This document shows, piece by piece, positions 12,844 to 58,602 of a DNA stretch of 64,000 nucleotides. The position numbers were made by a program, and so were the translations under genes. The stretch's first letter is position 1; every line of letters starts with the position of its first letter. The stretch is from IMG/VR virus record IMGVR_UViG_3300048881_000780. The stretch is one strand, 5' to 3'. This DNA comes from a virus. Its lineage: Duplodnaviria; Caudoviricetes. The notes beneath the pieces were generated by a model, which saw only the letters and a list, made by a program, of their open reading frames with translations, searched no databases and was not told the origin of the DNA.

Positions 12844-12872
12844 TTGACGACCTGCGTTAAGACCGATATTAT
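12844..12872 (+). promoter_or_regulatory. sigma70-type promoter of sRNA copy 1, overlapped by the 17-bp palindrome
   Basis: TTGACG-N17-TATTAT, conserved in all three copies. Confidence 0.8.
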
Positions 12873-12878
12873 AAACTT

Positions 12879-12966
12879 GTAGGAACGACCAATTCTAGGT
12901 CAAATCTCCTACTCCTTATGTGTGTGTATGTGTGTGTAAGAAGAGACTCGAAAGAGTCTCTTTTTA
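12879..12966 (+). ncRNA. putative ~88-nt sRNA copy 1 (5' hairpin, anti-SD/GU-rich seed, terminator)
   Basis: GTAGGA/TCCTAC and GACC/GGTC stems; CTCCTTATGTGTGTGTATGTGTGTG; AAGAGACTC-GAAA-GAGTCTCTT plus T-run; near-identical to 43906-43995 and 58316-58405. Confidence 0.8.
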
Positions 12967-13022
12967 TTTTAAGATTTACATTTATAACGCATCATGTTAA
13001 AATAAATTAAAGCGAGGTAGAT

Positions 13023-13157
13023 ATGTCAAATAGAACTATACAAGAAGATTGTTCTCACTCTTTTAACTGTGATGGTTTTTGCGAGTACTGTGGAATATCA
13101 GAGCACGATTACGAATCATCATGCTGTAGCGGCGAGGAGATTGGTCGTTATGAATAA
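13023..13157 (+). CDS. small Cys-rich protein (44 aa, absent from ORF track)
   Basis: GAGG RBS; MSNRTIQEDCSHSFNCDGFCEYCGISEHDYESSCCSGEEIGRYE. Confidence 0.5.
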   Translation: MSNRTIQEDCSHSFNCDGFCEYCGISEHDYESSCCSGEEIGRYE

Positions 13158-14424
13158 GACTTCTCCCTTTATTAGTACATGGAAAATTATAGATAAGAGA
13201 ATTACTTTTCCTTTTAAGAGAAGTGCTAATATTAATTGCACTATCGACTGGGGAGATGGAACGCAATCTCATGTTACTAACTACTTTGATAAGAATAATA
13301 CTCACATCTATAAAGAAAATGGTGAGTATGAAATTAGTATTGTCGGAGATATATTCGAGCTTGATATAAAGCTTGAGGAAAGTGCGAGAATAGTTAAAGT
13401 TTCATCTATGGGTAGATGCTCTTGGAGAGTTTTTAAAGCAATGTTTTGTGAATGTCTGTATCTAAGAGAGTTTAACTCTGGAGACTGTGACTCTTCCTAT
13501 ATAAGCGATATGTATTCTATGTTTAACGGTTGTAAGAGCTTAAAAAAGGTAGTTATTGATTCTTTTGATACTTCAAATGTTTTTGATATGGAATTTATGT
13601 TTGCTAATTGTGAAAACCTAAATTCCTTGCAATTAAAAAACTTTACAAATGAAAGTGTTGTTACAATGCGAGGAATTTTTGAAGGACTCTCAAAGTTAAA
13701 AAGATTAAACTTATCAGACTTTAAGACTCCTAGGGTGCAGATTTTTTCTAGTATGTTTTCGAGTTGTACCAGCTTAAAGAAACTAAACTTAAAATCCTTT
13801 AATACGAGTAATGCTAAATCAATGATTAGTATGTTTAATGCTACTGTATCTCTAGAAAGTCTCGATATCTCTACTTTTCAAACTGGAAACGTTATAGATA
13901 TGCGCTCCATGTTTAATCGCTGCTATGTAAGTGAGCTTAAACTAGATCACTTTGACACGTCATATGTATCATCGATGGAAAATATGTTCAGAGGAATGAT
14001 CAATCTCAAAGAGATAGATATTTCAAATTTTAATATTAAAAATGCTCTATCTCTTCATGGATTATTTAATTCTTGCTCTAGTCTTAAAAAAATAAATTTT
14101 GGAGAAATTAATACCTCAAGAGTTAGAGATTTAAGCTATATGTTTAATAATTGTAGCTCTCTTGAATCCTTGGACTTATCTACCTTTGAGACCTCAAGAG
14201 TTCAATCGATGGATAATATGTTTTACTCTATTCCAGAAAAGTTAAAGGTTGATATAACTCACTTTGATTTTGATAAATTAGAGCAAAATCCGTTCAGGTT
14301 CACTAAAAGTAAGCTTATAATAGATAGTAGGTATAAAAAACACTTTAAAGAGTCTGAAGCTAAAGGTGTAGAATTTGGGGTCAATAAGAGAAGGCATCCC
14401 TGGTTCAAATCATTGTACGCTTAA
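13150..14424 (+). CDS. PKD + DUF285/BspA-type LRR protein
   Basis: IDWGDG module, FDTSNVxxMxxMF repeats, GAGGAG before ATG 13150; ends HPWFKSLYA. Confidence 0.9.
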   Translation: MNKTSPFISTWKIIDKRITFPFKRSANINCTIDWGDGTQSHVTNYFDKNNTHIYKENGEYEISIVGDIFELDIKLEESARIVKVSSMGRCSWRVFKAMFCECLYLREFNSGDCDSSYISDMYSMFNGCKSLKKVVIDSFDTSNVFDMEFMFANCENLNSLQLKNFTNESVVTMRGIFEGLSKLKRLNLSDFKTPRVQIFSSMFSSCTSLKKLNLKSFNTSNAKSMISMFNATVSLESLDISTFQTGNVIDMRSMFNRCYVSELKLDHFDTSYVSSMENMFRGMINLKEIDISNFNIKNALSLHGLFNSCSSLKKINFGEINTSRVRDLSYMFNNCSSLESLDLSTFETSRVQSMDNMFYSIPEKLKVDITHFDFDKLEQNPFRFTKSKLIIDSRYKKHFKESEAKGVEFGVNKRRHPWFKSLYA

Positions 14425-14448
14425 GTCTTTTTCACACACGGAGATAGT

Positions 14449-15174
14449 ATGACGGCCTTTGTTAGTAGATGGAATCTTGAGAGAGGATATTTTAAGGCGC
14501 CAGTTATTCGAGATAAGTACACTGAAGTAACTATTGACTGGGGAGATGGCCACAAATCTAATATCTCAGGAGTTGGCAAAGATCAGTATTATCATGAATA
14601 TAAGACTTGCGGTAAATATACTATCAGTATTACTGGAAAAACGAGAGCGATTTCAATTTACCCACGAGATAAACAACTTCTTTTAAGTGTATTATCAATC
14701 GGAGACTTGGGATTAAATACACTACATGGAGCCTTTAAAGATTGTGTAAATATGACTTCATTTACTGGTGAAATTGAAAACTGCATCAGTGATTTATCTT
14801 GGATGTTTGGGTATTGCTTGAAATTATGGTCTGTTGATATAAAAAGTAAGCATGGTAATGCTATAAGAAGCTTTGGAGATATGTTCTATAGTTGTCAATC
14901 TCTAACAAAGGTTAATCTTAGTAAGCTAAATATAGATAATGATAATACTTACTTTTCGAATGTCTTTGGAGGTTGTCTTAAAATTAAGCAAATTACAGCC
15001 CCCTACACTACCGAAGAGAAGAGCGTTTACTTTGGAGACAGTCTTGAGTTGTGTAGAAATAACGTAAAAATTAATGGTGGTGGACTTATAGAGAAATATC
15101 TAAAAGATGAACTTTCAAGAGTCAGTGTAATTCACAATAAGTATGATGGTAATTGTGGGGTTGGACATGGGTAA
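14449..15174 (+). CDS. PKD + DUF285-type LRR protein, divergent, lacks tag
   Basis: IDWGDG, degenerate repeats. Confidence 0.8.
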   Translation: MTAFVSRWNLERGYFKAPVIRDKYTEVTIDWGDGHKSNISGVGKDQYYHEYKTCGKYTISITGKTRAISIYPRDKQLLLSVLSIGDLGLNTLHGAFKDCVNMTSFTGEIENCISDLSWMFGYCLKLWSVDIKSKHGNAIRSFGDMFYSCQSLTKVNLSKLNIDNDNTYFSNVFGGCLKIKQITAPYTTEEKSVYFGDSLELCRNNVKINGGGLIEKYLKDELSRVSVIHNKYDGNCGVGHG

Positions 15175-16546
15175 GAAAAAAAATAAGGAAAGTTGCCCTC
15201 TTACTAGATTTAGAAAAGTTTATGGAAATTACAATAGTGAAAGTATTTTAAAGGCCTGTGAAAAAGGTGACTTTAAAATGTTATTAGATATAGTCACAAG
15301 TGAAGAACTTGAAGGTATGCCAAAAGGATATGTACTAATGTCCATTCCTAAATTTGACAAAGAGCGTATCTACTATGATTTTATAAATAACTTTCAAGAT
15401 AGCGACTCCCCCTATTTAAGAGAAGCGTGCGTAAAAGCTCTCTATGAATATTTAGATACTGAAAACTCTAAAGAAGTTGATTCTTTTAAACTTAAAATCA
15501 CTAATATTAGATATAACTCTAAAGACTTCCCTGGTGTCGTCAAGAGAATTGATTCTATATTTAAGTGGCTTGGGTCAAGTGAAGATCAAGATAAACTAGA
15601 ACTTGCTAAAGATACCATTAGGTATTTACTTAAATATATTGTCGAAAAAGATGAAGAACATCACGATTATTCAAAGAGTAGCGTTGATAATCATCAACTC
15701 TATAGTGAAGTTGAAAAGGAAAGAATTTCAACATTTTTAATGAATAATAGAAAATTTAATACGACAACCAGAGATTTATTTAGAAGCTTGTATCAGGATC
15801 ACTATGTTGATCTTAATTTTGTAACACTTGAGAAGATATTTGGAAATCTGGATAGCTTTAGAAGTAACTTAAAGAAAAAGAGTTTACTTGTCCGAGGATG
15901 TGACTATAGTGACAAAGAGGATAGTTTAAGAATTCAAACAACATTTGATAATCTAGAGAGAAAGCTTAGAGAACATCACGGTATAAAATTCTCTTTTAAA
16001 TCTATCTGCATGGAAGAAGTCGATACAGTTGATCTCATAATGAAGCTCACTAGAAATAGAATGAGAGGACTTTTAGACTTAGAGTACTTTTTTTTAGAAG
16101 AGCTTGAAATCTGCAAATCTCTAATGATTGATGGCCTTGAAATATTAGAGAGTGCCAATAGAGGTTATCACGGCAATGGGGAGAATATCCCTTATGGAGT
16201 ATTTTTAGCTAAGTCTTTTCCAAAGCACTGGAAACTTCCAACTGAGATGACAATGAATTTAACAACTCGGGACACAGTTAGCTCTATTTATCACAAAAGT
16301 GATAATCCAATAGTTGACTCCTTGAAGGATAAATTCAAAGAAGATGACGTAAATGCCATAAAGGAGTTCTTAAGAACCCAGATTGATGACTTTGATAAGA
16401 AGTTAGCAAATAGTCACCCGGCGCTTGAGAGTAATTATCAACTGCTGGCCCATAGACTTAGAGATTTTTGTAATTACTACGATATTGAATATACCAGGGC
16501 CATAGAATCATTTTTTAAAGGCCCTGAGAGTTTTAGGGAGTACTAA
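15143..16546 (+). CDS. hypothetical protein
   Basis: 467-aa ORF, start uncertain. Confidence 0.7.
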   Translation: MMVIVGLDMGKKKNKESCPLTRFRKVYGNYNSESILKACEKGDFKMLLDIVTSEELEGMPKGYVLMSIPKFDKERIYYDFINNFQDSDSPYLREACVKALYEYLDTENSKEVDSFKLKITNIRYNSKDFPGVVKRIDSIFKWLGSSEDQDKLELAKDTIRYLLKYIVEKDEEHHDYSKSSVDNHQLYSEVEKERISTFLMNNRKFNTTTRDLFRSLYQDHYVDLNFVTLEKIFGNLDSFRSNLKKKSLLVRGCDYSDKEDSLRIQTTFDNLERKLREHHGIKFSFKSICMEEVDTVDLIMKLTRNRMRGLLDLEYFFLEELEICKSLMIDGLEILESANRGYHGNGENIPYGVFLAKSFPKHWKLPTEMTMNLTTRDTVSSIYHKSDNPIVDSLKDKFKEDDVNAIKEFLRTQIDDFDKKLANSHPALESNYQLLAHRLRDFCNYYDIEYTRAIESFFKGPESFREY

Positions 16547-17523
16547 TGAAGATTTACGAGAGAATTAATGCTACTCACCTATTCTTTTATGGCGGGATTT
16601 TCTCTCAGTGGTACACGCAGGCACCATTTTATGATCAAGAACTAAATTTAAGATTCAGCTCTGGTGAGCAATACATGATGTATCGAAAGGCCCTCTTATT
16701 TAAAGATAGAGACGCTATGGCCAAAATAATGAGTACAACCTCACCAAAAGAAGTGAAAGATCTAGGAAGAGATGTTTCAGGCTTTAAACAAGATATCTGG
16801 GATGCTCATAAATTAGATATTATTGTAAGAGCTAATTTTCTTAAATTTTCGCAAAACGAAGCCCTCTTAAATAAAATGAGAAAGTATGCTCATTTAAAGT
16901 TAGTGGAGGCCTCTCCTGTCGATACTATATATGGAATAGGACTTAAATCCACTGACTCTAGAGTATTGGATGAAAGTAAGTGGAGAGGAGAGAATCTTCT
17001 CGGTGTGGCCTTAATGAGAGCGAGAGATTTAATTTTAAATCAAAACATTTCTCCTCATATTGTCATGAGAAACGCTAGCATTATTAATGCTAGTGAAAAT
17101 ATTATTGCGCATGGGTGCAATACTCAAGGGGCCAGTGGAGCAGGAATTGCGAAGTATATGGCCTTAAAATTTCCCCTATCAGATCGAGAGTATAAAAAAA
17201 GATGTAGAAATGGCGATTTTATACTTGGAGATATTCTCTTTTATCGGGAAAACTCTAAAATAATAGCCAATTGTGCCACTCAGGAGTACTACGGTCGAAG
17301 ACTTAAGATGGATAAGGATTCTGTAGAAAATAGATATCAGGCCATAAGACAATGCTTAACAAGGATTTATGTCAACGCAAAAAGAGAGCAAATGAGCGTG
17401 GCCATTCCAAAACTTGGGTGTGGTAGAGCACGCCTGGATTGGAGTAGAGTATTAAATATAATAAAAGAAGTATTTCACGATTATCCAATTACGATATATT
17501 ATATAGAAGATAAATATTGTTAG
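16546..17523 (+). CDS. NADAR (YbiA-like) - macrodomain fusion
   Basis: FSQWY, EQYMM, KFSQN, LVEASP.D.IYGIG, GENLLG; then IAHGCN..G..GAGIA and IPKLGCG. Confidence 0.92.
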   Translation: MKIYERINATHLFFYGGIFSQWYTQAPFYDQELNLRFSSGEQYMMYRKALLFKDRDAMAKIMSTTSPKEVKDLGRDVSGFKQDIWDAHKLDIIVRANFLKFSQNEALLNKMRKYAHLKLVEASPVDTIYGIGLKSTDSRVLDESKWRGENLLGVALMRARDLILNQNISPHIVMRNASIINASENIIAHGCNTQGASGAGIAKYMALKFPLSDREYKKRCRNGDFILGDILFYRENSKIIANCATQEYYGRRLKMDKDSVENRYQAIRQCLTRIYVNAKREQMSVAIPKLGCGRARLDWSRVLNIIKEVFHDYPITIYYIEDKYC

Positions 17524-17532
17524 GGATTAAAA

Positions 17533-17769
17533 ATGAATGACGATTTAAATAATATCATCAATGACGTCTGGGAAAAAATTAGTAATAGAAGATATCAGCT
17601 AAAGGGTATCATCGAAAAGTACCAACTAGACTACGTAGACTATAAGAACAATCCTGAGGGATCTCCATATAAGAAACAGTATCTACTAGTTAAAGAGTCT
17701 ATGGAAGAGTTGGCGGAACTTGAGTTATTTTCAAAGAATTTAAAGTCTATTGATCCGTATCAAGAGTAG
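17533..17769 (+). CDS. hypothetical protein
   Basis: 78-aa ORF in operon. Confidence 0.55.
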   Translation: MNDDLNNIINDVWEKISNRRYQLKGIIEKYQLDYVDYKNNPEGSPYKKQYLLVKESMEELAELELFSKNLKSIDPYQE

Positions 17770-17784
17770 AAGTAAAAATCCTAA

Positions 17785-18153
17785 CTATTTAGTCCATTTA
17801 ATATTCAAGATAGTGTCTAATGCTTGAGATAGGGTCTGACTAGAGCGCAACCTTAATTCTTCAGAGGCAATAAATTCGTCACTATTTTCTCGGTATTGCC
17901 CCTTGTAGACTGATTGATTTAATAGCAAGTAGTCAACTCCTGAACACTTAGATCTTTCACTATATACCCCACAAGAAAATACTTCTTTCATTGTTTTTTT
18001 CTTTATATTTTCATAGAGGAAATTTACGATATAAGACTTCTTATATTGATTGTGACGAGATGAAGTCCATTTTATAAACTCTTTAAGTTTCACTTTAGTG
18101 ACTTTATCTACAACTGTTACCTTGAATTCATTGCTTTTTACTAGCTTTGTCAT
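17785..18153 (-). CDS. hypothetical protein
   Basis: 122-aa ORF. Confidence 0.55.
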   Translation of the reverse strand: MTKLVKSNEFKVTVVDKVTKVKLKEFIKWTSSRHNQYKKSYIVNFLYENIKKKTMKEVFSCGVYSERSKCSGVDYLLLNQSVYKGQYRENSDEFIASEELRLRSSQTLSQALDTILNIKWTK

Positions 18154-18157
18154 TTTG

Positions 18158-18298
18158 TTACCAATCTAATTTTGAATCTTGCTCGTCATTATCAAAATCA
18201 GCACTAAGCCAGGTATTATCACCGATTGACTCAAAGAAGGCTTCTTTAAGCTTCTCTTTTTGTTCATTTGTTAGTTTCTCATTACTTTTTTTATTCAT
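18158..18298 (-). CDS. 46-aa peptide with internal NTWLSA (absent from ORF track)
   Basis: MNKKSNEKLTNEQKEKLKEAFFESIGDNTWLSADFDNDEQDSKLDW fills an operon gap. Confidence 0.5.
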   Translation of the reverse strand: MNKKSNEKLTNEQKEKLKEAFFESIGDNTWLSADFDNDEQDSKLDW

Positions 18299-18314
18299 AT
18301 CTTAGCTACCACAG

Positions 18315-18533
18315 TTAACCAAACCATTTACGATAAAGTATTGTGGCATCTCTCGTATCCCTTTCAGTTTCTCCAAACTGAGAGGTGTAATCCGAACCAA
18401 ACATTGAAATTTGATCTCTCAGATAGGACATAAAATCCCTCTTAGATTTACTAGCTGAATCACCACTTATAAAAAGAGCGATCATTTGAATAATGAATTC
18501 TTCATCAATATAGTGATCTACTCTAACTCTCAC
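18315..18533 (-). CDS. hypothetical protein
   Basis: 72-aa ORF in operon. Confidence 0.55.
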   Translation of the reverse strand: MRVRVDHYIDEEFIIQMIALFISGDSASKSKRDFMSYLRDQISMFGSDYTSQFGETERDTRDATILYRKWFG

Positions 18534-18778
18534 TAGGATACCTTTTTAAAGTTGTTGATCATGCGAATACCAAAACTCTCATCATGGGGAGTTTTAAATT
18601 TAACAGCAGTTTTACCGCTCTCCCATGGTAAAATGTCGATAACTTCTAGGTGAGTCTGTTCTTTTACTTCTTTTTGGTAATATCCTTCATCTTTATTATT
18701 TTTTAAAATAACGATATCCCCGATCTCAATAGCATCGGAAGATCCCATCTCTAATGAAGTAACCCATGAGTTTGACAT
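18533..18778 (-). CDS. hypothetical protein
   Basis: Likely start MSNSWV after GGAG. Confidence 0.55.
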   Translation of the reverse strand: MSNSWVTSLEMGSSDAIEIGDIVILKNNKDEGYYQKEVKEQTHLEVIDILPWESGKTAVKFKTPHDESFGIRMINNFKKVS

Positions 18779-18835
18779 ATATTCTCCAGAGATATTAATA
18801 ATAACACTGTTAACGCAACATGTCAATATACATTT

Positions 18836-19264
18836 TCAAGAAGATAACTTTTGGTCTTGAATTTCTCTTTGAGTCCGGTTTAACCACTTGTTAATTATTG
18901 GATCTTTTGACTTGTCCAGTAGGTTCTTAAATAGCTTATAGTAAGTCTTACATTTATTATCGAAGAATATTTTACGACCGGAATTTAGAAAAACTACTGA
19001 GATGAATGGTTGATATGGATAATCTGACTCAAAATTCACTAAAATATCTTCATGAAAAAACATGAGTGTCAGATTAGACTCTAGTAAATTGTTAATTCTC
19101 TTATTAGCGTTTAGCGAATCTAATGGAGGTTTACTATTAGATTTGATATTAAATTCTTTAACAAGTTCTCCACACTTAACTACATCAAGAATTTGCTTTT
19201 CATCTTTATAGGATTTGTACCTTCTTTTTAGATAAGTTATGAATCTATTCACCTTGATATCCAC
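18836..19264 (-). CDS. hypothetical protein
   Basis: 142-aa ORF. Confidence 0.55.
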   Translation of the reverse strand: MDIKVNRFITYLKRRYKSYKDEKQILDVVKCGELVKEFNIKSNSKPPLDSLNANKRINNLLESNLTLMFFHEDILVNFESDYPYQPFISVVFLNSGRKIFFDNKCKTYYKLFKNLLDKSKDPIINKWLNRTQREIQDQKLSS

Positions 19265-19805
19265 CTGTCCATTTTTTAATTGATGATATTTTTATTTTTG
19301 AGAACGGAATTTTGTTTTTTAAATTTAATAAGGCCTTTCTTCTTGCGCTGAACTTATCTTTTAAATCATCTTTCTCGAGTTCATGGAGGGATTTATTGGA
19401 GTTACCTGGAATAAACAAATTATCGAACCCAAAACCAATTAACTCTCTATCTGGATCAATTAAACCAGAAGTGCCACCTCTGAAAATATAGATATACTCT
19501 CCATCTGAATATGCAATAGAGGTGATCCAAACAGCAGGAGATTTTTTCTTTAACTCTTTTAATTTAAATTTAATATCTACAACCTCATCCCACTTCTTAC
19601 TTGATCTATCAAAAATCTCTAATACAGTATCTTCAACAAGGTGAAATTCGCGACCAAGTTCAAGTACTTTATGGATAATCACTTCATCTTTATCACCCCT
19701 GACTTCTTTTAAGTCTGGCCCTTTTGATGCCGTAAGATTTGGAAGAATTCTCTTAAATTCTTTAAGTTTATCTTTATTAGATGTAAGTAATGTAAATTTC
19801 TCCAT
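19245..19805 (-). CDS. Ham1/ITPase non-canonical purine NTP pyrophosphatase
   Basis: TSNKDKLKE, LVEDT, GFGFDNLF, SARRKAL motifs. Confidence 0.88.
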   Translation of the reverse strand: MEKFTLLTSNKDKLKEFKRILPNLTASKGPDLKEVRGDKDEVIIHKVLELGREFHLVEDTVLEIFDRSSKKWDEVVDIKFKLKELKKKSPAVWITSIAYSDGEYIYIFRGGTSGLIDPDRELIGFGFDNLFIPGNSNKSLHELEKDDLKDKFSARRKALLNLKNKIPFSKIKISSIKKWTGGYQGE

Positions 19806-19814
19806 ATTTAAACC

Positions 19815-20834
19815 CTACGCCAATGCCTCTAACCAGGTATTAATGGGTTTGCTCTCACTGGCCCCATCAAATCCTTTAATAAACCTAAGAGACTTGGAAT
19901 TAAACGTAATATTACTTTTACACTGGTACAAAAAAGACTTTCTCTTAATATCATCAGAGATCGTAAATCCTGAGAAATTTACCTTTGGGGCCACAAAACC
20001 ATTAAACATATCTGCGATAGTGATTGCGGAATTGGATTTAAATCCACGTAGATCTAAATTTCTTTCAAGCGAACACCTTGAGAACATTTCTATAAAGTTT
20101 TGAGCTTTTTCAGTTTTAAAATTTGATAGATTAAGATTTTTAAAACTAGAATCCTGAAACATTCTCTCCATGGTTTTACAATTTCTAGTATTGAAATTTG
20201 AAAGGTCTAAATAATCTAAGTTAAGTTGAGAAAACATCGCAGTCATACAAAGAACTTTTTCTGTGTTAAATGATTTGATGTTCAGCGATTCGAGACTGTG
20301 CATCTCAGAAAACATATGTCCCATATAGAGAACATTAGCTGTGTTAAATGAACTTAAATCTAACCTTTCTAGAGAATAGAGTTCACTAAAGGTACCTGAC
20401 ATATCGTTTACATTTGAGGTGTCAATATTGAGAGTTAATTCCTTAATATTATGACATCTAATAAACATTTCAGAGATACTACTAACATTACTAGTATTAC
20501 AAGTTCCAGAGTTAAATTTTTTGAGATCGAAACAATTTGCAAAGCTATACCATAGATTTTCCCATTCGCAATCGCCAAGATTTTTTACCTCTATAAGGGT
20601 GGCACCTTCAACATTTGAAGATACCCAACTCTTTAAGTTTCCAGCTATTGAAATGGTATAAATACCAGCTGTCTTATAGGTGTGGGTTGCCTTGACGTTA
20701 CCAGTAATATTTTCTAAGTCAGATCCGTCTCCCCAGTCTATTAGTAAGTTGACATCTATTCCATTATTAGTGGGGAGAGTGATCTTATTGTCGCTACCAA
20801 TAGTTTGCCAGCAACTTACAAATGATTCTTTCAT
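19815..20834 (-). CDS. PKD + DUF285-type LRR protein
   Basis: IDWGDG, LGDCEW, repeats; ends NTWLEALA. Confidence 0.9.
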   Translation of the reverse strand: MKESFVSCWQTIGSDNKITLPTNNGIDVNLLIDWGDGSDLENITGNVKATHTYKTAGIYTISIAGNLKSWVSSNVEGATLIEVKNLGDCEWENLWYSFANCFDLKKFNSGTCNTSNVSSISEMFIRCHNIKELTLNIDTSNVNDMSGTFSELYSLERLDLSSFNTANVLYMGHMFSEMHSLESLNIKSFNTEKVLCMTAMFSQLNLDYLDLSNFNTRNCKTMERMFQDSSFKNLNLSNFKTEKAQNFIEMFSRCSLERNLDLRGFKSNSAITIADMFNGFVAPKVNFSGFTISDDIKRKSFLYQCKSNITFNSKSLRFIKGFDGASESKPINTWLEALA

Positions 20835-20857
20835 TATTAACTTCCTTGTTGTGCTTA

Positions 20858-21967
20858 TCATGAAATAGACTCCAGCCAAGTGTTTTTAGTATCCTCTTGG
20901 TTTTGGTCTGTTGTGAATTGACTTCCTTCCTTGAAGTAATCTATATTTTTCTTATATCTCGTTTTTATTTTTACATTTGCTTTACTCTTATAGTGAACAA
21001 AGTTATGAAAGTTTGCGACAGCGCTAAATCTAAAATTTGATAAATCTATCTCTTTTAAATTATCTGAATAGAAAAATATTGCACCAAAATCTACGACATT
21101 AGATGTTTTAAATGATCCTAGATTTACTTCCTTTAAATTATCACAACATTTAAACATTGCTCTCATATCAGTGACACATTCAGTATTAAAGCTCGATAGA
21201 TCTAGCGACACTAGGCCCCTGCACTTTTCAAACATTCCCTGCATATCAAGGGCGCTATCAGTTCGCATGTGATCTAGATTTAAATTCTGTAAATTATAGC
21301 AATTTTTAAACATTCCTCTGAAACTTAAAACACTACCAGCATCAAATCTCTCTAAATCTAGAGAGAGTAAGTTATTCATGCCAGAGAACATTCGAGACAT
21401 TGTTGTAACATTAAAAACATCTAAGTTCCTTAAGTCGAGATGATTTATTCCGGATTTTCTAAACATAACTTTCATATTTTCAACAAATGAAGTATTCAAA
21501 TTATCAATATTTAAATTATTTAAATTAATAGTTTTGTGAAATAATCCTTCCATATTAATAACAGAGCTCGAGTCAAAGGTGGAGAGATCTATATCTGTAA
21601 GATTCTTACACCCATGAAACATATTTTTCATAGATGTAACATTTGAAGTATTACAGCTGCCACTGTTAAATTTTGTCAATGATTTACAGTTTTCAAAGGA
21701 TCCTGCGAAAGTTATCCAATCGCAATCACCAAGATCAAAAACTTTTACTACTTGTATGGATGGATAATCTAAAATATGCATGGCCTGAATCTTACCATAG
21801 AAGCAAATGGTATACTCTCCATTTTCTTCGTAGGTATGATCTAGCTCATTACTGGAAATGATTCCATCACCCCAATCTATAGCGAACTCTACGTCTGTTC
21901 TATGAAACTTAAGAGGGAGAGTTACACTACCCTTTTTCACACGCCAACTGGCCCTAAATGGTTTCAT
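20858..21967 (-). CDS. PKD + DUF285-type LRR protein
   Basis: IDWGDG, LGDCDW, repeats; ends NTWLESIS. Confidence 0.9.
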   Translation of the reverse strand: MKPFRASWRVKKGSVTLPLKFHRTDVEFAIDWGDGIISSNELDHTYEENGEYTICFYGKIQAMHILDYPSIQVVKVFDLGDCDWITFAGSFENCKSLTKFNSGSCNTSNVTSMKNMFHGCKNLTDIDLSTFDSSSVINMEGLFHKTINLNNLNIDNLNTSFVENMKVMFRKSGINHLDLRNLDVFNVTTMSRMFSGMNNLLSLDLERFDAGSVLSFRGMFKNCYNLQNLNLDHMRTDSALDMQGMFEKCRGLVSLDLSSFNTECVTDMRAMFKCCDNLKEVNLGSFKTSNVVDFGAIFFYSDNLKEIDLSNFRFSAVANFHNFVHYKSKANVKIKTRYKKNIDYFKEGSQFTTDQNQEDTKNTWLESIS

Positions 21968-22070
21968 TTTATCTATATTAATAACAAGCCTCTCTAGATT
22001 TGATATTAACATATTTTTTATTTTCTAACAAGTTGCGTTAAAAACAATCAATAATTAGACATAGTTAGAA

Positions 22071-22481
22071 TTAATCTTGATAGGTTTCTGATTTTGTTAG
22101 AACCTCGGTACCAGTGTACTTAAAGTCTGGCAATAGATCCTCAACATCTTCTATCTTTCTAGAAGGAATCCAGAGAGAATTCTCCCCATTTTTTAAGAAG
22201 ATTTCTAAAAACTTATAATCCAGACTATTGAATATTAAACTACCATCCGACATTAAGGAAAATTGATATTCTTTATTTAACTCTTCAATATAGTAATTAA
22301 TATCACTTTCTTTCTTCTTAACTAAGTCTACAACGGATTCACTATCATCAAATTTTGACATTTCTTCTTTATAGTTATCTAGGAATTCTTTCTTTGAGTC
22401 TATGTCTACTTCTATTTTTTGGAAAATATCAACTTCCGTAACCCGCTCTATTACACTAGTTTTATATATAGTCTTCTTCAT
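22071..22481 (-). CDS. hypothetical protein
   Basis: AAGGAG RBS. Confidence 0.65.
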   Translation of the reverse strand: MKKTIYKTSVIERVTEVDIFQKIEVDIDSKKEFLDNYKEEMSKFDDSESVVDLVKKKESDINYYIEELNKEYQFSLMSDGSLIFNSLDYKFLEIFLKNGENSLWIPSRKIEDVEDLLPDFKYTGTEVLTKSETYQD

Positions 22482-22512
22482 TGCTACTCCTTTAAGTACT
22501 TATCGTAGAATG

Positions 22513-23454
22513 TCACTCTAGAGATTCTAGCCAGGTATTTCTTATTGATCCTGAGATTGCATTTGGAATATCGTGAAAATACAATTTCCCATTCTTTACT
22601 GGTAATAGTATTTTACAGAGGACATCACAAAATATACCAATATTAGATCCAGAAAAGTCAAAAGAGTATAACTTAAGTTTTTTAAGAGAGCTACACCCTC
22701 TAAACATATAATCCATATCATTTGCATTGCTAGTATCAAAGAAATCTACGTTTAATCTTAAAAGAGAATTGCAATGAGTGAACATATTTCTAAATGATTC
22801 TACACTGTAAGTCTTAAAGTGGTTTAGATCTAGAGACTCTAGACTGTGGCAATCTTTAAACATCTTCTCCATTGATTCAACTTTTGAAGTATTAAAATTT
22901 GATATATCTAAGAAGTTAAGAGCACTAGCTCCTTCAAACATCGACTTCATTGATTTAGTGTTTTTGGTACAAAATGAAGATAAGTCTAGATATTTAAGCC
23001 TTTTACAATTGGAAAAAAGATGCCTCATATTCTTTACATTATATGTATGAGAGTTCGATAAAGAGACTCTCTCTAGAGATTCACACTCATCAAACATAAA
23101 GCTCAAATCTTTTACTGTTTTTGGAATTGCTCCATTATAACTTTCGAGCATTTTACAACCATAGAAGGCATTTGATAAATCCTGCCAATGGCAGTCACCT
23201 AAATGATGAACGGCCAAAAGTTCACACGATGAGACTTTATAAGATCTCCAAAGTCCTAATTTTCCAGATATTGTTAATGTGTAATTGCCATTAATTTCAT
23301 ATATATGAACGGCGTTTGGGTCATCGTAGGAAGTTATATGATCACTTTTCCCATCGCCCCAGTCGACAGTAAAGTCGTAATCAAACCCCTCAAATAGAGG
23401 GAGAGCTAAAACTCTCTTTTGGACTAGCCAGGTACTAACAAAGTTTTTTGACAT
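22513..23454 (-). CDS. PKD + DUF285-type LRR protein
   Basis: VDWGDG, LGDCHW, repeats; ends NTWLESLE. Confidence 0.9.
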   Translation of the reverse strand: MSKNFVSTWLVQKRVLALPLFEGFDYDFTVDWGDGKSDHITSYDDPNAVHIYEINGNYTLTISGKLGLWRSYKVSSCELLAVHHLGDCHWQDLSNAFYGCKMLESYNGAIPKTVKDLSFMFDECESLERVSLSNSHTYNVKNMRHLFSNCKRLKYLDLSSFCTKNTKSMKSMFEGASALNFLDISNFNTSKVESMEKMFKDCHSLESLDLNHFKTYSVESFRNMFTHCNSLLRLNVDFFDTSNANDMDYMFRGCSSLKKLKLYSFDFSGSNIGIFCDVLCKILLPVKNGKLYFHDIPNAISGSIRNTWLESLE

Positions 23455-23568
23455 AGAATAAATCCTCTATGTCTATTATAAAGGAATACTTAGTGAGATT
23501 TCGTTTTTAACTTTTAAGTAAGAGATGCGTCTATTTCGTTATATTAATGATAGTTAGGCATATAAATT

Positions 23569-24513
23569 TTAGCTAATGGCCCTAAGCCAACTATTACAGT
23601 TTTTATTATCCGTGACGATATTAAGATTTGATGATGCAAACATCTCTAGATACTTCCTCGATACCTTCACTAAAGCATTAGAGTTAGTTATTTTCGATTT
23701 TGCTAGGGACTCATCGAACTCGAAGTTTTTAAGATTAATTTTCTTAAGTTTAGGAGTGTCATAGAACGCCTTTGTAATATCTTTAAGTTTGGAGAACTTT
23801 CTGTGTCCAAAGTTGATGGATTCGAGGTTCCTACAGTTAAAAAATGCTCTATTCATATGATTAATTTTATGGGGCCTAAAATTTGATAAATCAAGTTTTC
23901 TTATTCCCGAAGAGCTAAAGACGCACGAAAAGCCAATGAGATTTTCCGTATTAAATTCACTAAGATCGACTTCTCTTAAACTTTTAGTACCGTGAAATGC
24001 TGAAAACATTTGAGTTAAAGAAGATGAATTTATTTTACCAAAATCAACATTTTCTAACTTTTCGCAGCCACGAAACAAGCTAGACATAATTTTAACATTA
24101 GAAAAATCAAAGGTTGATAAATCTGCGGTTTCAAGTTTTTCACATTCTGAAAATAAACCGTTTAAATTCTTTATTTTGATCGTATCACAATTGCCTGCGA
24201 CAAACTTTTTAAGGTTAATACAGTCACTAAATAAAGATCCGACATTATACCAATTTAGATCACCAAATTGAAGAACCTCAATCAACTTAGCTTTATCTCT
24301 TAGCTTTATAAATAGTCCTCTGTGAATTGACCCTGATACTCTTATTGTGTAAATTCCAGGTTCTTTATACTTATGAACAGCTGAGTTCTTGCTATTTTGA
24401 TCAATACTCCCATCACCCCAATCAATTGTAAGCCCTGAGGCATCTTGTAAGAAAAAAAGCGTCTCATTACTATTGGTAATTTGCCATCGACTAATAAAAT
24501 CAAAGTTACTCAT
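23569..24513 (-). CDS. PKD + DUF285-type LRR protein
   Basis: IDWGDG, repeats; ends NSWLRAIS. Confidence 0.9.
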   Translation of the reverse strand: MSNFDFISRWQITNSNETLFFLQDASGLTIDWGDGSIDQNSKNSAVHKYKEPGIYTIRVSGSIHRGLFIKLRDKAKLIEVLQFGDLNWYNVGSLFSDCINLKKFVAGNCDTIKIKNLNGLFSECEKLETADLSTFDFSNVKIMSSLFRGCEKLENVDFGKINSSSLTQMFSAFHGTKSLREVDLSEFNTENLIGFSCVFSSSGIRKLDLSNFRPHKINHMNRAFFNCRNLESINFGHRKFSKLKDITKAFYDTPKLKKINLKNFEFDESLAKSKITNSNALVKVSRKYLEMFASSNLNIVTDNKNCNSWLRAIS

Positions 24514-25365: not shown

Positions 25366-25729
25366 AGTTTCAAGTATTACAGAAGCTAGAGATATAATTG
25401 ATAAATTTCACGCTCGAAAAATAATGATTCATAATGGGAAAAGGTGGAGTGTTGCCTCAGTGAAAAGAATTATCCCTATGATTAGTAATTACCCAAAAGG
25501 GCCAATAGATGATATTGAAATCCTAATTAATAAAGAAAAGAATCACTACTTTTCAGCACTCTGTTTATTTGGAAAAAGATCATGGGTTAAAGATATTAGG
25601 ATTTGTGATGATTATAATAGAAATTCCCTAAAGATGGTAGCAATTCATCCTACTCCTAAAAATGATGAGATGATCATTAGAGTGGCCAGATTTATTAAAT
25701 TAATTTACTTAAAACAAAAGACGAAATGA
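25355..25729 (+). CDS. hypothetical protein
   Basis: 124-aa ORF overlapping neighbours. Confidence 0.6.
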   Translation: MQNRVSSITEARDIIDKFHARKIMIHNGKRWSVASVKRIIPMISNYPKGPIDDIEILINKEKNHYFSALCLFGKRSWVKDIRICDDYNRNSLKMVAIHPTPKNDEMIIRVARFIKLIYLKQKTK

Positions 25730-26574
25730 GTTCTTTTAGATTTGTAATAAATATTCCCAATGATGATACAGTCGTAAGTATGAGAGTTTATGAAGAGTAT
25801 CGTTATAGTTTTAAAGTTAATTGGGGAGATGAATGCTTTGGTAGTTACACTTATCGAAACAAGAGTCGCAACATAATACATCATACTTTTGAAAAAGCTG
25901 GAGAATATACTATTGTAATGAGTGGCAGGATTGGCAAAATCAGAGCGGAGGAAACTTTATTTAAATATATAACTGAGGTTATAGATTTAGGAGATTGTAA
26001 GTGGCAGGATTTATCATTCATGTTCGCTGAATGTAATAATATGGTTAGATTTAAAGGTGGCATTACTTCTGATGTTAAATCAATGGATCATATGTTCACA
26101 GATTGCAAGAAACTGAGTTTTTTAGATATTTCTAGTTTTGACACTTACAATGTAACTAATATGAGAGGTATGTTTACAGGACTCTCCAAACTCAGTCATA
26201 TTGACGTTAGTCACTTCAACACCTTCAATGTTACGGATATGTCGCATATGTTTAGAGGTATGAAATCACTTAGACATTTAAGCATATCTAACTTTCGATT
26301 TAAAGGCCCTGTCAATATGGGCCTTAGTTTTGATGATTTGAACTCCTGTGAGGTATTGGATCTAAGACACTTAGATTTTAGTAAGATAGATCTATACTTA
26401 ATTAATGATGTTAGAAGTTATCAGAACTGTTTTAAGTATGGACCAAAGAAGGTAATTGTTAAGCTAGAGGATTTTTGTAAGTACTTTAAGGGTAATCCGC
26501 GCGTTTACGGATTAGTTGAAGATAGAAGAAAGAATAGCTGGTTAAACTCGCTAGATATCGAGGATTTCAAATGA
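25726..26574 (+). CDS. PKD + DUF285-type LRR protein
   Basis: VNWGD, LGDCKW, repeats; NSWLNSL near C-terminus. Confidence 0.9.
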   Translation: MSSFRFVINIPNDDTVVSMRVYEEYRYSFKVNWGDECFGSYTYRNKSRNIIHHTFEKAGEYTIVMSGRIGKIRAEETLFKYITEVIDLGDCKWQDLSFMFAECNNMVRFKGGITSDVKSMDHMFTDCKKLSFLDISSFDTYNVTNMRGMFTGLSKLSHIDVSHFNTFNVTDMSHMFRGMKSLRHLSISNFRFKGPVNMGLSFDDLNSCEVLDLRHLDFSKIDLYLINDVRSYQNCFKYGPKKVIVKLEDFCKYFKGNPRVYGLVEDRRKNSWLNSLDIEDFK

Positions 26575-31649: not shown

Positions 31650-31682
31650 AAAGAGGAGAATTTTATAGTTCTCCTTTTTTTT
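31650..31682. terminator. bidirectional intrinsic terminator
   Basis: A-run, AGGAGAA/TTCTCCT stem and T-run between convergent genes. Confidence 0.65.
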
Positions 31683-42237: not shown

Positions 42238-43203
42238 TTAATTAAGAGAGTTCAGCCATGCATTTTCTTTTGATGCTACATACTCCCGATATTTTATATT
42301 TTCATATTCTTTGAAATATAATTTTTTATATCTTTTTTTTACAATTATTTCACTTGGACCATTTTCGCAGAAGGCCTCTAAGTTTCCATTATCAAATGAG
42401 AATCCGTATAAATCTAAACTAATTAAAGAGTTTGTACCTCTTAACATCTGGCGAAAATCCGCAACTCTGTCTGTAATGAAACTTGATAAATTTAAGCTCC
42501 CAAGAGCTCTAGTTTTGCAAAACATACTGTTCATATTGGTAACGCTGGAAGTATCAAATTTTGATAAATCTAAACTCGTTAGAGAGTGGGCATCATGAAA
42601 CATGTAACTCATATCTAAGACATTGGAAGTGTTGAAGCTAGAAAGATCTAAATCAACGAGTGAGTATGTATCACAAAACATGTATCTCATATTGGTGACA
42701 GATGAAGTGTTAAATGATGATAAATCTATTTTTGCAATCGAGTATATATCGCAAAACATATGGCTCATATTTGTAACAGACGACGTATCAAATGACGATA
42801 AATCTATTTTTACAAGTGATTTTGCATTAACGAACATATGACTCATGTCGGTAACATTTTTTGTTACCCCTCCCGCCAATGAGGTTAAGTTGTAACAACT
42901 AGAAAACATCTTATTAAAACTAGTCCAATTACAGTCACCTAAGTCTATGACTTCTAAAATACAAGGTCTTGACTCATTTTTAAAATTTATTGATCCGATA
43001 TCTCCCGTAATTTTTATAGTGTACTCTCCCTCTTTGTCATATAGATGGTTACAATTAAGGGAGCCTTTGTATCCTGTTTGACTGATATTTCCATCTCCCC
43101 ACTCAACAAAGAGGAATTTCTTATCATCACTTGAGTTTTCTATAGAAAAAGAGAAAGACTTTAGTTTATCTATTTTTATTTTAAATATAAATGGTTTTTT
43201 CAT
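42238..43203 (-). CDS. PKD + DUF285-type LRR protein
   Basis: VEWGDG, LGDCNW, repeats; ends NAWLNSLN. Confidence 0.92.
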   Translation of the reverse strand: MKKPFIFKIKIDKLKSFSFSIENSSDDKKFLFVEWGDGNISQTGYKGSLNCNHLYDKEGEYTIKITGDIGSINFKNESRPCILEVIDLGDCNWTSFNKMFSSCYNLTSLAGGVTKNVTDMSHMFVNAKSLVKIDLSSFDTSSVTNMSHMFCDIYSIAKIDLSSFNTSSVTNMRYMFCDTYSLVDLDLSSFNTSNVLDMSYMFHDAHSLTSLDLSKFDTSSVTNMNSMFCKTRALGSLNLSSFITDRVADFRQMLRGTNSLISLDLYGFSFDNGNLEAFCENGPSEIIVKKRYKKLYFKEYENIKYREYVASKENAWLNSLN

Positions 43204-43905: not shown

Positions 43906-43995
43906 ATAAAAAAGGGACTCTTTCGAATCCCTTTTTACACACACATACACACACATAAGGAGTAGGAGATTTGACCTAGAAGTGGTCGTTCCTAC
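43906..43995 (-). ncRNA. putative GU-seed sRNA copy 2
   Basis: Reverse-complement near-copy of 12879-12966; promoter -35 at 44030-44025. Confidence 0.8.
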
Positions 43996-44224
43996 AAGTT
44001 TATAATATCGGCCCTAACGCAGGCCGTCAACATATAAATCACATATATTTTATTTAATTACTCTATTTTTTAGTGATATTTATCAGTTAAACCTAGTAAC
44101 TTAAGAAGAATTTATTCCCTATAAGTCTTTGAATTTTGGCCGATACATAAGAAATACAAGAAAAACTAAAAAAATACATAATTTAATTATTGACGCAATA
44201 TGTTAACATTGGTACTATAGTATT

Positions 44225-44351
44225 AAGAAATGAGCTGGCCACACACCAGCAATACTCACACTTTCAAAGAATTTAGAAAGAGTTTTTCTTGGCTTAAATA
44301 AGGGCACACTTAGGATTTGTGACCCTGGGATACACACCTGGGGTCACTTTT
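44225..44351 (+). ncRNA. CA-loop structured RNA, copy B
   Basis: TTGACG(44190)-N17-TACTAT; GCTGG-CCACACA-CCAGC; terminal 11-bp stem with ATACACA loop plus TTTT. Confidence 0.6.
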
Positions 44352-44365: not shown

Positions 44366-44524
44366 ATGAAGAATCTAATTATATTTTCCCTAGCGATAAT
44401 TTTAACATTTACGATATTTTACAAAGTATCTTGTCCAGTGGTGGAAATGGTCAAGGGAACAAGTTATGAAAATTTATTCTCCCCTTGCCTTAACTACTGT
44501 AAATTTCTAGATAATTTAAATTAA
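44366..44524 (+). CDS. 52-aa hydrophobic peptide (absent from ORF track)
   Basis: MKNLIIFSLAIILTFTIFYKVSCP...; weak RBS. Confidence 0.4.
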   Translation: MKNLIIFSLAIILTFTIFYKVSCPVVEMVKGTSYENLFSPCLNYCKFLDNLN

Positions 44525-52547: not shown

Positions 52548-52556
52548 GTAAACATT

Positions 52557-54182: not shown

Positions 54183-54258
54183 GTTATTAAATGAGCGCAA
54201 AAGAGAATATTCTTAAAATAGCAACTAATAGCGTGATCTAAAAGACTGGGAGTAAGAA

Positions 54259-56540: not shown

Positions 56541-56607
56541 AATTATATCACATTAGTTAAATATTGACAAATTGCGTTAATACATATATTATAAAAAAGA
56601 GGTTTCT

Positions 56608-56940
56608 ATGTTAAATTCTAAAAGTATAAAAAATGCTAAAGTAATTGATCGTCTAATTGCCTATGATGGAATTTGTTCATCATATTTAATCGATGGTTCT
56701 TACTATGTGTCACATTTCTATAATCAAGATAGTAAATTCTATTATGACTACTATTTTAAAGCTTCTAAGAGTTTAATTGATGAGCTTAAAGAGGAGCAGA
56801 TAGATTTTAAGACTTTTATAGAGTCAGCTAGTGAAATTTATAAGGTGAGATTCTGCATCAAATTAAAAGAGTATCTCGTAGATAAAATTTCAATATCTGA
56901 TCTTGGGAATTTTATGCCACAGGCCGGAGAGTATCTATAA
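56608..56940 (+). CDS. hypothetical protein
   Basis: GAGG RBS; coupled to MTase. Confidence 0.6.
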   Translation: MLNSKSIKNAKVIDRLIAYDGICSSYLIDGSYYVSHFYNQDSKFYYDYYFKASKSLIDELKEEQIDFKTFIESASEIYKVRFCIKLKEYLVDKISISDLGNFMPQAGEYL

Positions 56941-57827
56941 TGCAATCTATTGCGACTAGAATTTATCTCATGGCCAGAAAGAATGGAAATCAATTTAAGA
57001 TATCGGATATCTACAAATACTTCCCAAAAAACAAAAGAGAGACTGTTAGAGCTAGAGTTTACACTAATTTAGGTTCGCTCTTTGAAAAGGTTTCTAGAGG
57101 CGTATACTGTATAAAAAGAAATGAAAATAGCGCTCTACTAATTAATGGAGACGGCAGAGATTTATCAAGTATTCCGGATGCTTCCATTGATGCCATTATT
57201 ACTGATCACCCATGGGTAGATAATTTAGCGCTCAAGGGTACTAGAAAAAATATGGCCAAGTACGATGGGTTTTTATATGAATTTGAAGATTTCTTAGAAA
57301 AGTATCGAGTACTAAAAGATGGATCCTTTTTAATTGAGAACTTACCTCAAGAGAGTGAAACAAATTTTGAATATCTCCATCAGATCAAGAAAATGGCAAT
57401 TAAAGCTGGTTTTAAGTTTTGGTGTGTCACAGTTTGGAAAAAAGGTAAACTAGTTCACAACACGGGAAGAGTTGCTAAGAATAAAGAATTCCTATATTTC
57501 TTCACTAAGGGAAAGGCCAGAAAATTAAGAGTCAATAAGAATACGAGACAATCTGATTTAATGTCAGGGACAACTCAAATAGTCCCATGTGAACTTAATT
57601 TTCAACCAGCTTCTCCAAAGAATAAAAAACACCAGGCCGAGAAGCCAATTGAATTACTCAAGGCACTTATCGAATTGGTTACCAATAAAGGCGAATTGGT
57701 TTTAGATCAATTTGCAGGCAGTTTTAATATTGTAGATGCCTGTCTTGAGACACAGAGAGATTGCATCGCAATAGAGATCAATGAAGAATTCTTTAATAGA
57801 TACACAAGAGAGAAAGAGGCCAGCTAA
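56940..57827 (+). CDS. N6A/N4C DNA methyltransferase (beta-class order)
   Basis: ITDHPW (DPPY-like) precedes HQAEKP and LDQFAGS. Confidence 0.88.
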   Translation: MQSIATRIYLMARKNGNQFKISDIYKYFPKNKRETVRARVYTNLGSLFEKVSRGVYCIKRNENSALLINGDGRDLSSIPDASIDAIITDHPWVDNLALKGTRKNMAKYDGFLYEFEDFLEKYRVLKDGSFLIENLPQESETNFEYLHQIKKMAIKAGFKFWCVTVWKKGKLVHNTGRVAKNKEFLYFFTKGKARKLRVNKNTRQSDLMSGTTQIVPCELNFQPASPKNKKHQAEKPIELLKALIELVTNKGELVLDQFAGSFNIVDACLETQRDCIAIEINEEFFNRYTREKEAS

Positions 57828-57830
57828 TAA

Positions 57831-58118
57831 CTATATTGTTTTCTCTGAACTCACGATGTGATCAATTTCTTTTTCACTTAAGTTTCCGGAAAATTTTAAA
57901 AGTTCTCTTATATTGAATTTAACCTCAATAAATCTAAGTCTAAATGATTGTTTCCTGATTTCTTGATAGAGTTCTCTACTGCTTTTATCGGGGTAGCCAT
58001 AGCACAAAATTAGACCACGAATCGAAAAATTTATTACTATAAATAGAGATAATGGCACGAGCACAATATAGATGAAAATATTTAATAGTATTAACGGTAT
58101 ATATAGAAGTCGATACAT
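57831..58118 (-). CDS. membrane hypothetical protein
   Basis: Hydrophobic N-terminus. Confidence 0.55.
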   Translation of the reverse strand: MYRLLYIPLILLNIFIYIVLVPLSLFIVINFSIRGLILCYGYPDKSSRELYQEIRKQSFRLRFIEVKFNIRELLKFSGNLSEKEIDHIVSSEKTI

Positions 58119-58123
58119 AAACT

Positions 58124-58261
58124 CTACTCTCTAGTTAAGATGAATTTTACACCATTAATTACCGATCTAATTAGATAAAGCCAGTGCCCTGCGTAAGCTG
58201 TAAGAATCTGACTCGCTCCAATCAAAAAGAAAATAATGATCAATACATTTAATACGTTCAT
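58124..58261 (-). CDS. 45-aa hydrophobic peptide (absent from ORF track)
   Basis: AAAGGA RBS; MNVLNVLIIIFFLIGASQILTAYAGHWLYLIRSVINGVKFILTRE. Confidence 0.55.
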   Translation of the reverse strand: MNVLNVLIIIFFLIGASQILTAYAGHWLYLIRSVINGVKFILTRE

Positions 58262-58315
58262 AAGAATTCCTTTCTTTTATTATAACACCTCATGTTAATT
58301 AAAAATACACCAGAA

Positions 58316-58405
58316 ATAAAAAAAGGGACTCTCTCGAATCCCTTTTTTACACACATACACACACATAAGGAGTAGGAGATTTGACCTAGAATTGGTCGTT
58401 CCTAC
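58316..58405 (-). ncRNA. putative GU-seed sRNA copy 3
   Basis: Near-identical to copy 2; terminator loop GAGA; -35 at 58440-58435. Confidence 0.8.
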
Positions 58406-58602
58406 AAGTTTATAATATCGGCCCTAACGCAGGCCGTCAACAAATAAAAACAAATAAAAGTCGTTTAAAATGCATATTTATATGATTTTTAATACTTAGG
58501 AACGATAACTTAAGTGGCCAAAATTAGGCCGATTGTGAATATTTTTTGATATTTTATAGATTTTATTTTGACACAATGTGTTAATAAATATAAACTAATA
58601 TT

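Follow-up and report, generated by a model that had tools for sequence, protein, structure and literature searches.

The 64,000-nucleotide (nt) stretch of DNA studied here (the window; IMG/VR virus record IMGVR_UViG_3300048881_000780, Duplodnaviria; Caudoviricetes) belongs to a plasmid-like element that carries at least four copies of a gene for a putative small RNA (sRNA), three of them in the window and one upstream of it. We read the product as a trans-acting RNA that would pair with messenger RNAs through a single-stranded seed, in which an anti-Shine-Dalgarno (anti-SD) block is followed by UG repeats, and we give this explanation as a whole a probability of roughly 0.6. Its parts do not stand equally firm: we think it likely that the sRNA is real and expressed, while its action by base pairing that occludes the SD is about an even bet. 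Judging from the sequence, it is probably a new family of a known kind, a multicopy anti-SD base-pairing sRNA, here located on a plasmid-like element and accompanied by a putative anti-sRNA partner.

The unit had been noticed earlier, from the letters of the sequence, as three dispersed copies at 12844-12966(+), 43906-44030(-) and 58316-58440(-), and we verified the positions and strands of all three. In an alignment of 200 bp around the in-window copies the mean column identity was 84%, nearly all of it contributed by a core of about 125 bp, and a 21-nt core motif occurred exactly three times in the window versus not once in 100 shuffles. By walking the assembly upstream we extended the region examined to 106.5 kb of the element and found copy 4 at L003:19953-20077, on the window's minus strand and 13.5 kb before the window start; the four paralogs are 92-97% alike (92% on average). 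A covariance model of the kind that the original prediction had proposed (R1), built from the four transcribed parts, recovered the known copies, and over the 106.5 kb it found exactly these four, at 113-121 bits, with everything else at 23 bits or less. The source run's public assembly breaks at copy 1, where contigs end at 12892 and 12910, and the depth over a 73-nt piece common to copies 1 and 3 is double that of its flanks.

All copies carry the promoter that had been described for them, TTGACG-N17-TATTAT, which agrees with the sigma-70 consensus at 10 of 12 positions and ranks among the best local matches. The predicted RNA starts at a G located 7 nt past the -10 hexamer and opens with a 5′ hairpin of 34 nt (outer stem of 6 bp, inner stem of 4 bp), which is followed by an unpaired seed of 23-27 nt, made up of CUCCUUAU and then UG repeats, and by a terminator with a 7-bp G+C-rich stem lengthened by A-U pairs, a GNRA loop and a run of U5-U7. 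Folding reproduced the succession of 5′ hairpin, unpaired stretch and terminator that the original prediction had drawn, with a minimum free energy (MFE) of -27 to -28 kcal/mol, about 4 standard deviations below shuffles (z about -4). In copy 1, on the plus strand, the promoter occupies 12844-12872, with TTGACG and TATTAT separated by a 17-nt spacer and a 17-bp palindrome, described below, at 12844-12860, and the predicted RNA of about 88 nt runs from 12879 to 12966, divided into hairpin (12879-12912), seed (12913-12936) and terminator (12937-12966); its model score is 116 bits. Copy 2, on the minus strand, has its promoter at 44002-44030 (palindrome at 44014-44030) and its predicted RNA at 43906-43995, with the hairpin at 43995-43962, the seed at 43961-43937 and the terminator at 43936-43909 (121 bits). 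For copy 3, also on the minus strand, the corresponding positions are 58412-58440 for the promoter (palindrome at 58424-58440) and 58316-58405 for the RNA, with the hairpin at 58405-58372, a seed one UG unit shorter at 58371-58349 and the terminator at 58348-58319 (113 bits).

The differences between the copies leave the predicted structure intact. All 17 stem pairs form in each of the four copies (68 of 68 pair cells), with three double compensatory changes and one wobble. The terminator changes listed before, from A-U to G-C and from C-G to U-G, were correct, as were the GAAA and GAGA loops; copy 4 contributes two further double changes, C-G to U-A in the inner stem of the hairpin and G-C to A-U in the terminator, and its loop is GUAA. 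When the 3′ partners were slid by 1-3 columns as a control, pairing dropped to 37-49% and no double change was left, and in a shuffle control 7 of 500 shuffles equaled the observed compensatory pairing. With four copies in hand we can also confirm that the differences fall mainly in the promoter spacer and the loops or else keep the pairing: the -35 and -10 hexamers and the anti-SD octamer of the seed are invariant, and variation is found in the spacer, in the loops (GAAA, GAGA and GUAA) and in the number of UG units.

The same comparison bears on a role at the level of the DNA, according to which each unit would be a promoter-terminator cassette that provides operator sites, an insulator or a Z-DNA-prone tract, or else the product of neutral, recent duplication. 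The youth of the copies, the operator-like palindrome in each unit and the TG tract, which alternates purines and pyrimidines over about 21 nt, are in keeping with this, but we regard it as improbable, given that all stem changes are compensated while the loops and the promoter spacer drift, that the complementarity to ribosome-binding sites and to the neighboring unit X3 (see below) is far above controls, and that the units lack terminal repeats and target-site duplications. A peptide gene was rejected as well: the UG tract differs between copies by 2-nt indels, which shift the frame of any open reading frame (ORF) through the seed, and therefore the unit is not coding. The notion that the 5′ hairpin mimics the repeat of a clustered regularly interspaced short palindromic repeat (CRISPR) array was dropped, there being no array and no match.

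The original prediction had called the unit self-contained, and the orientation of copy 4, the separate downstream promoters and the compensatory changes support a stand-alone multicopy sRNA gene. Copy 4 abuts the 3′ end of a convergent gene, and behind each of copies 1-3 a separate palindrome-bearing site or promoter precedes the next gene. After copy 1, this is the promoter of the downstream operon at 12975-13003(+) (TTTACA, 17 nt, TAAAAT; palindrome-bearing), and copy 1 is therefore not the leader of that operon, which ends with a NADAR-Macro fusion protein (ADP-ribose processing) at 16546-17523(+). If each copy instead acted in cis, as a leader or attenuator of the next gene, the co-orientation of copies 1-3 with that gene would be in keeping; such a role is nevertheless scarcely credible, because copy 4, facing a convergent gene, already contradicts it, palindrome-bearing promoters intervene after the other three copies, and the downstream genes are unrelated to each other. 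The flanks, described earlier as unrelated, are not wholly so: each in-window copy has palindrome-bearing promoters on both sides. Identity between copies extends no further than the promoter on one side and the U tract on the other. A mobile repeat with target-site duplications had been named as the alternative to an sRNA gene, and we looked for it at the unit borders of the four copies, where neither terminal inverted repeats nor target-site duplications were seen; a miniature mobile repeat resembling miniature inverted-repeat transposable elements or repetitive extragenic palindromes was rejected for want of terminal inverted repeats or duplicated flanks.

The palindrome connects the sRNA with the rest of the element. 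Allowing at most one mismatch, TTRACR-N5-YGTYAA (17 bp) has 32 sites in the window versus 2.5 expected, among them those at 12739, 18810, 25127, 27382, 34907, 43751, 44190, 45026, 46592, 48920, 53893, 56564, 58568 and 62791. The sites that we inspected overlap sigma-70-type -35 hexamers, and in the sRNA promoter it is the -35 hexamer together with the next 11 nt that matches the palindrome. Each in-window sRNA locus has three sites, one in the sRNA promoter, one in a divergent promoter located 105-176 bp upstream of the copy, and one in the promoter region of the next downstream gene. The palindrome looks like an element-wide operator, and its presence on the sRNA promoter therefore places the sRNA very probably in the main regulon of the element.

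To evaluate the pairing of the seed with ribosome-binding sites, we used as controls 200 seeds in which the anti-SD part, CUCCUUAU, was kept and the tail shuffled, as well as the reversed seed and 270 gene-interior windows. Over the 106.5 kb, 4 of the 177 ribosome-binding sites reached -26 kcal/mol or lower (about -27 to -29 kcal/mol, with 20-27 bp that include the SD), while the shuffled-tail seeds yielded a mean of 0.06 sites and never more than one. At a threshold of -24 kcal/mol these controls gave a mean of 0.2 and a maximum of 2, none of them reaching four, and neither the reversed seed nor the gene-interior windows had any site at that energy. All four predicted targets lie upstream of the window, with their leaders at L011:8736-8792, L011:9448-9504, L011:3419-3475 and L013:14733-14789, and the starts of the four genes agree with the gene calls of the collection itself. 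Two of them share an operon that is convergent with copy 4, namely a gene for a 242-amino acid (aa) protein with weak metallopeptidase matches (PhageMetallopep, SprT-like, M78) and a 106-aa gene that overlaps and trails it; of the other two, one encodes a 198-aa protein with a sub-threshold helix-turn-helix (HTH) match and has a palindrome-bearing promoter, and one encodes a 60-aa protein. Within the window, a candidate ribosome-binding site at 14433-14451 reached -16.8 kcal/mol only, and the leader of the M17 peptidase gene -19.8 kcal/mol. The modeled energies favor a mechanism in which the sRNA would cover the SD of a small number of mRNAs from the element itself, those of regulators perhaps among them.

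These targets also bear on the possibility that the roles are reversed, and that an abundant GU-rich RNA sequesters CA-rich RNAs or a protein that binds UG repeats instead of regulating mRNAs. The high gene dosage and the variable length of the repeat tract would suit such a decoy, and the mRNA of a C5-methylase probably starts with a similar GU run (61499-61482), a hint of a shared GU-binding factor. However, no candidate protein was identified, and the invariant anti-SD octamer and the enrichment at ribosome-binding sites fit mRNA targeting better, which leaves the decoy unlikely. The GU run at the predicted 5′ end of the methylase mRNA, 61499-61482(-), reads UUGUGUGUGUAUUUAUAC, has a 10-mer in common with the sRNA seed and could itself pair with CA-rich RNAs.

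The strongest predicted partner of the seed in the window lies right beside one of the sRNA genes. The unpaired stretch was run against the window in both orientations, 128 kb of strand in all, and once the antisense of the sRNA genes themselves was set aside, the best non-self site fell at about 58690-58722(+), with -32.4 kcal/mol. This is part of X3 (58568-58733, plus strand), an ORF-free CA-rich unit divergent from, and back-to-back with, copy 3, whose promoter at 58568-58596 agrees with the consensus at 10 of 12 positions and carries the palindrome. X3 holds the two best non-self sites of the 128 kb (-33.1 and -28.4 kcal/mol, the next best site having -26.2), and a Gumbel fit to the minima of 1-kb blocks gave about 0.02 after correction for the better of the two alone. 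The two stand in tandem and are laid out alike, with a CA-rich run ahead of a block of the type AAGG(A/G): site A (58665-58688, plus strand; 21 bp, -28.4 kcal/mol) is unpaired in the MFE fold, and site B (58694-58721, plus strand; -33.1 kcal/mol) spans the loop of the terminator and parts of both of its arms. That terminator (58690-58728, plus strand) consists of arms at 58690-58696 and 58716-58722, which form a 7-bp G+C stem around a 19-nt CA-rich loop, and of U6 at 58723-58728. Cofolding of the whole sRNA with X3 brought a gain of about -22 kcal/mol, and in the minimum the sRNA occupies site A while the X3 terminator stays closed. When X3 was compared with Rfam, the best rows had E values of about 0.1, far under gathering scores. 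Read on its minus strand, X3 looks like a degenerate sRNA gene, and not in the seed alone, so that its probable origin is an inverted duplicate of the sRNA gene, which fits an evolved anti-sRNA; as to X3 being a functional partner of the sRNA, we see the chances as evenly balanced. Downstream of X3 there are about 430 nt without an ORF (58735-59166, plus strand), rich in short palindromes that are made of TAGATATAC/CCTAG-type and CCCGATAGGGTATA-type motifs.

Divergent from copy 2 lies X2 (44190-44351, plus strand), a CA-rich leader or RNA with its promoter at 44190-44218, a first hairpin at 44234-44250 with the loop CCACACA, and a second hairpin at 44319-44347, weak and terminator-like, with the loop AUACACA and a tail of U4 only. 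X2 and X3 gave no convincing alignment beyond their promoters, and therefore we do not call them one family. Beside copy 1, the divergent promoter (12755-12727, minus strand) is followed by a leader with a 13-bp 5′ hairpin at 12720-12688, whose loop is CCACACU, and by a gene at 12635-12297. There are five CA-loop hairpins in the window, and the three strong ones are located within about 350 nt of sRNA promoters, all of them in divergent transcripts. For the divergent neighbors of the copies no Pfam family and no regulator family was found.

This arrangement suggests another way in which the sRNA might work, as a trans-acting antiterminator that docks on the CA-rich terminator loops of X3 and X2 and whose CUCCU then invades the G-rich 3′ arm and opens the terminator, so that transcription would continue into the genes behind it. 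Site B of X3 extends over the loop into both arms, by 3 nt on the 5′ side and 6 nt on the 3′ side, the X2 loop AUACACAC and GGGGU of its 3′ arm match GUGUGUGU and ACUCC, and the hairpins of both units stand between palindrome-bearing promoters and genes without a strong promoter of their own. Even so, we give antitermination little chance: the cofold minimum uses site A with the terminator closed, the match to X2 is interrupted and worth only about -22 kcal/mol, the sequence behind X3 is free of ORFs for some 430 nt, and the four ribosome-binding-site matches would be left unexplained. Small hydrophobic ORFs in the same neighborhoods, one of 52 aa after X2 (44366-44524, plus strand) and one of 45 aa adjoining copy 3 (58124-58261, minus strand), would be what a type I antitoxin requires, with the sRNA silencing adjacent toxin peptides; this is very unlikely, since copies 1 and 4 are without such a neighbor, the 52-aa ORF lacks an SD, and the best seed matches are located elsewhere.

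The sRNA does not belong to a known family in Rfam: an Infernal search of the whole window gave no match at gathering thresholds, and a permissive threshold on copy 1 returned chance-level rows only (E > 2). Exact-pattern scans for the seed junction and the 5′ hairpin through viral, metagenome and genome contig collections found no relative, and the 7 viral matches to a 17-mer pattern are about the number estimated for chance, none of them fitting the covariance model. The DNA around copy 1 (window positions 12000-20000) had no megablast match in phage and plasmid collections. Among 5.8 billion proteins, a helicase encoded 1.6 kb from copy 4 matched its own entry at 100% and then nothing above 31% identity. 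Runs with DNA of the element came from two hydrothermal-vent metagenomes, one of them probably the source sample and the other a vent sample with 2-4x depth; the fragments in the latter are identical to the element, and therefore offered no sequence variation to use.

Several points weigh against the base-pairing explanation. The pattern scans and the protein search turned up no relative outside this one element, and because of this the whole case for the structure is built on four paralogs with a mean identity of 92% and on three compensatory changes, which are few; the pairing of the terminator would moreover be kept in any transcript, and the UG tract differs in length between copies. The sequencing runs listed as matching the element include no RNA run. 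Gene starts were assigned heuristically (118 in the window, 177 in the 106.5 kb), and the pairing energies ignore the accessibility of the targets. For the 118 ribosome-binding sites in the window, seed pairing was no better than with the shuffled-tail controls, and CA runs upstream of the SD showed a slight enrichment only (6.5 versus 4.5 per kb). The earlier proposal of pairing with CACACA..AAGGAG leaders thus stood for four sites in about 106 kb, which beat the controls, and did not stand for many leaders in the window, which showed no enrichment. The complementarity of X3, finally, could be an unselected relic of a decayed sRNA copy.

As for the element itself, the contig of the Joint Genome Institute (JGI) that bears the helicase is 361,129 bp long. 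The window has a GC content of 32% and no tRNA or tmRNA, and it encodes many paralogs of the DUF285/BspA-type leucine-rich repeat (LRR) family, CobS/CobT-like proteins, M17 and S49 peptidases, methylases and a two-component pair. A search with the M17 peptidase in species genomes found no relative, and tblastn with the CobS-like protein gave about 32-33% identity in phages and up to 54% in plasmids, values that are uninformative on the host. The DUF285/BspA-type LRR proteins, with internal repeats of 78 bp, lie at 13069-14424, 19815-24513, 25726-26574, 36884-37768, 38836-40263 and 42238-43203. A 605-aa protein without a Pfam family (ORF 31681-33498) contains a 177-bp tandem repeat at 32893-33423(-), with 2.7 copies and 86% matches, and just upstream of the C5-methylase gene the 15-bp unit ATATTACGATTGTTT is repeated in 9.4 tandem copies with 99% matches (61587-61726), which has the look of iterons or of an array bound by a protein. 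We also noticed, some 39 kb before the start of the window, another sRNA candidate of the anti-SD type (L013:16995-17100, minus strand), a promoter-to-terminator unit unrelated to the R1 copies and undetected by that model, in which a GAGAC/GUCUC hairpin is followed by CUCCUCCU, a G/U-rich tail and a U7 terminator; the theme of an anti-SD block joined to a G/U-rich stretch therefore recurs on the element.

Taken together, the base-pairing explanation would work as follows. Each copy of the sRNA, with about 88-91 nt, would be made from its own sigma-70-type promoter and, through the palindrome that overlaps this promoter, would probably be switched together with the main regulon of the element. 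The 5′ hairpin and the terminator would frame the single-stranded CUCCUUAU and the UG repeats, and this seed is predicted to pair with the SD and with the C/A-rich bases just upstream of it (or U/A-rich bases, by means of G-U pairs), blocking access of the ribosome at a few mRNAs of the element. The CA-rich RNAs beside copies 2 and 3 most likely titrate the sRNA, as an anti-sRNA or sponge, or are regulated by it. A more elaborate version is a self-contained circuit, in which the four-copy GU-seed sRNA represses candidate regulators of the element (the 198-aa protein with the weak HTH match and the operon of the ImmA/IrrE-like peptidase) and CA-rich RNAs derived from inverted copies buffer it or have their terminators opened; this we offer as a speculation that is rather unlikely to hold in full. 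The locus provides a clean multicopy candidate with a readable seed, a short and statistically supported list of targets on the element, an apparent built-in anti-sRNA and an element-wide operator. If the sRNA is expressed, giant elements would use a logic of sRNA and sponge known from enterobacterial chromosomes and prophages, and it would be a direct experimental handle on the regulon of the element. To our knowledge, next to nothing has been described of the regulatory RNAs of very large plasmids or giant extrachromosomal elements of uncultured microbes, and we know of no plasmid-borne module that combines an sRNA with an anti-sRNA or with antitermination in trans.

Known sRNAs share parts of this design. 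The LhrC sRNAs have pyrimidine-rich, anti-SD-like UCCC motifs in loops and single strands that act against ribosome-binding sites, obey one two-component regulator and are not known to have a GU tract. LhrC1-5 of Listeria monocytogenes are described as a multicopy sRNA family (PMC4132741). The likeness to our unit lies in the several copies and in the anti-SD-like seed; similarity of sequence and model was assessed via Rfam only. GcvB is a single-copy, chromosomal sRNA of about 200 nt, encoded divergently from the LysR-type gcvA and not known to have an anti-SD block. It uses a G/U-rich single-stranded seed, R1, against C/A-rich sequences that immediately precede the SD in many mRNAs (PMC3879156; PMC4474525), and the seed of our sRNA follows the same logic of a GU-rich seed against CA-rich enhancers; in contrast to GcvB (RF00022), the sRNA of the element has about 90 nt, two hairpins, several copies and no match in Rfam. 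The closest counterparts in architecture and gene organization are csRNA1-5 of Streptococcus (RF02379), several similar sRNA genes of about 90-150 nt per replicon that are driven by promoters of one regulon and whose products consist of a 5′ stem-loop, an unpaired anti-SD stretch and a terminator stem-loop, with an anti-start-codon CAU, a conserved nonamer and CiaR-type promoters (PMC3091779). Multiple genes, probably under one regulator in our case too, two stem-loops and an unpaired anti-SD stretch are common to both. The csRNA model RF02379 gave no match at its gathering threshold and no csRNA row for the sRNA at E <= 10, and our unit differs in its seed, which has no CAU and carries a tail of UG repeats, and in its promoter with the 17-bp palindrome. 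Finally, the prophage-encoded anti-sRNA AgvB, which is borne by mobile elements in two copies, presents GcvB with CACAACA as a mimic of its targets (PMC4104026), and SroC is a sponge of the same sRNA (PMC4474525). X3, and more weakly X2, would likewise offer a CA-rich target mimic to a GU-rich seed; unlike in those systems, one element encodes both the sRNA and the RNA presumed to counteract it, back-to-back and from promoters that share the palindrome, and X3 appears to present two tandem sites with an SD-like block, one of them in the loop of its terminator.

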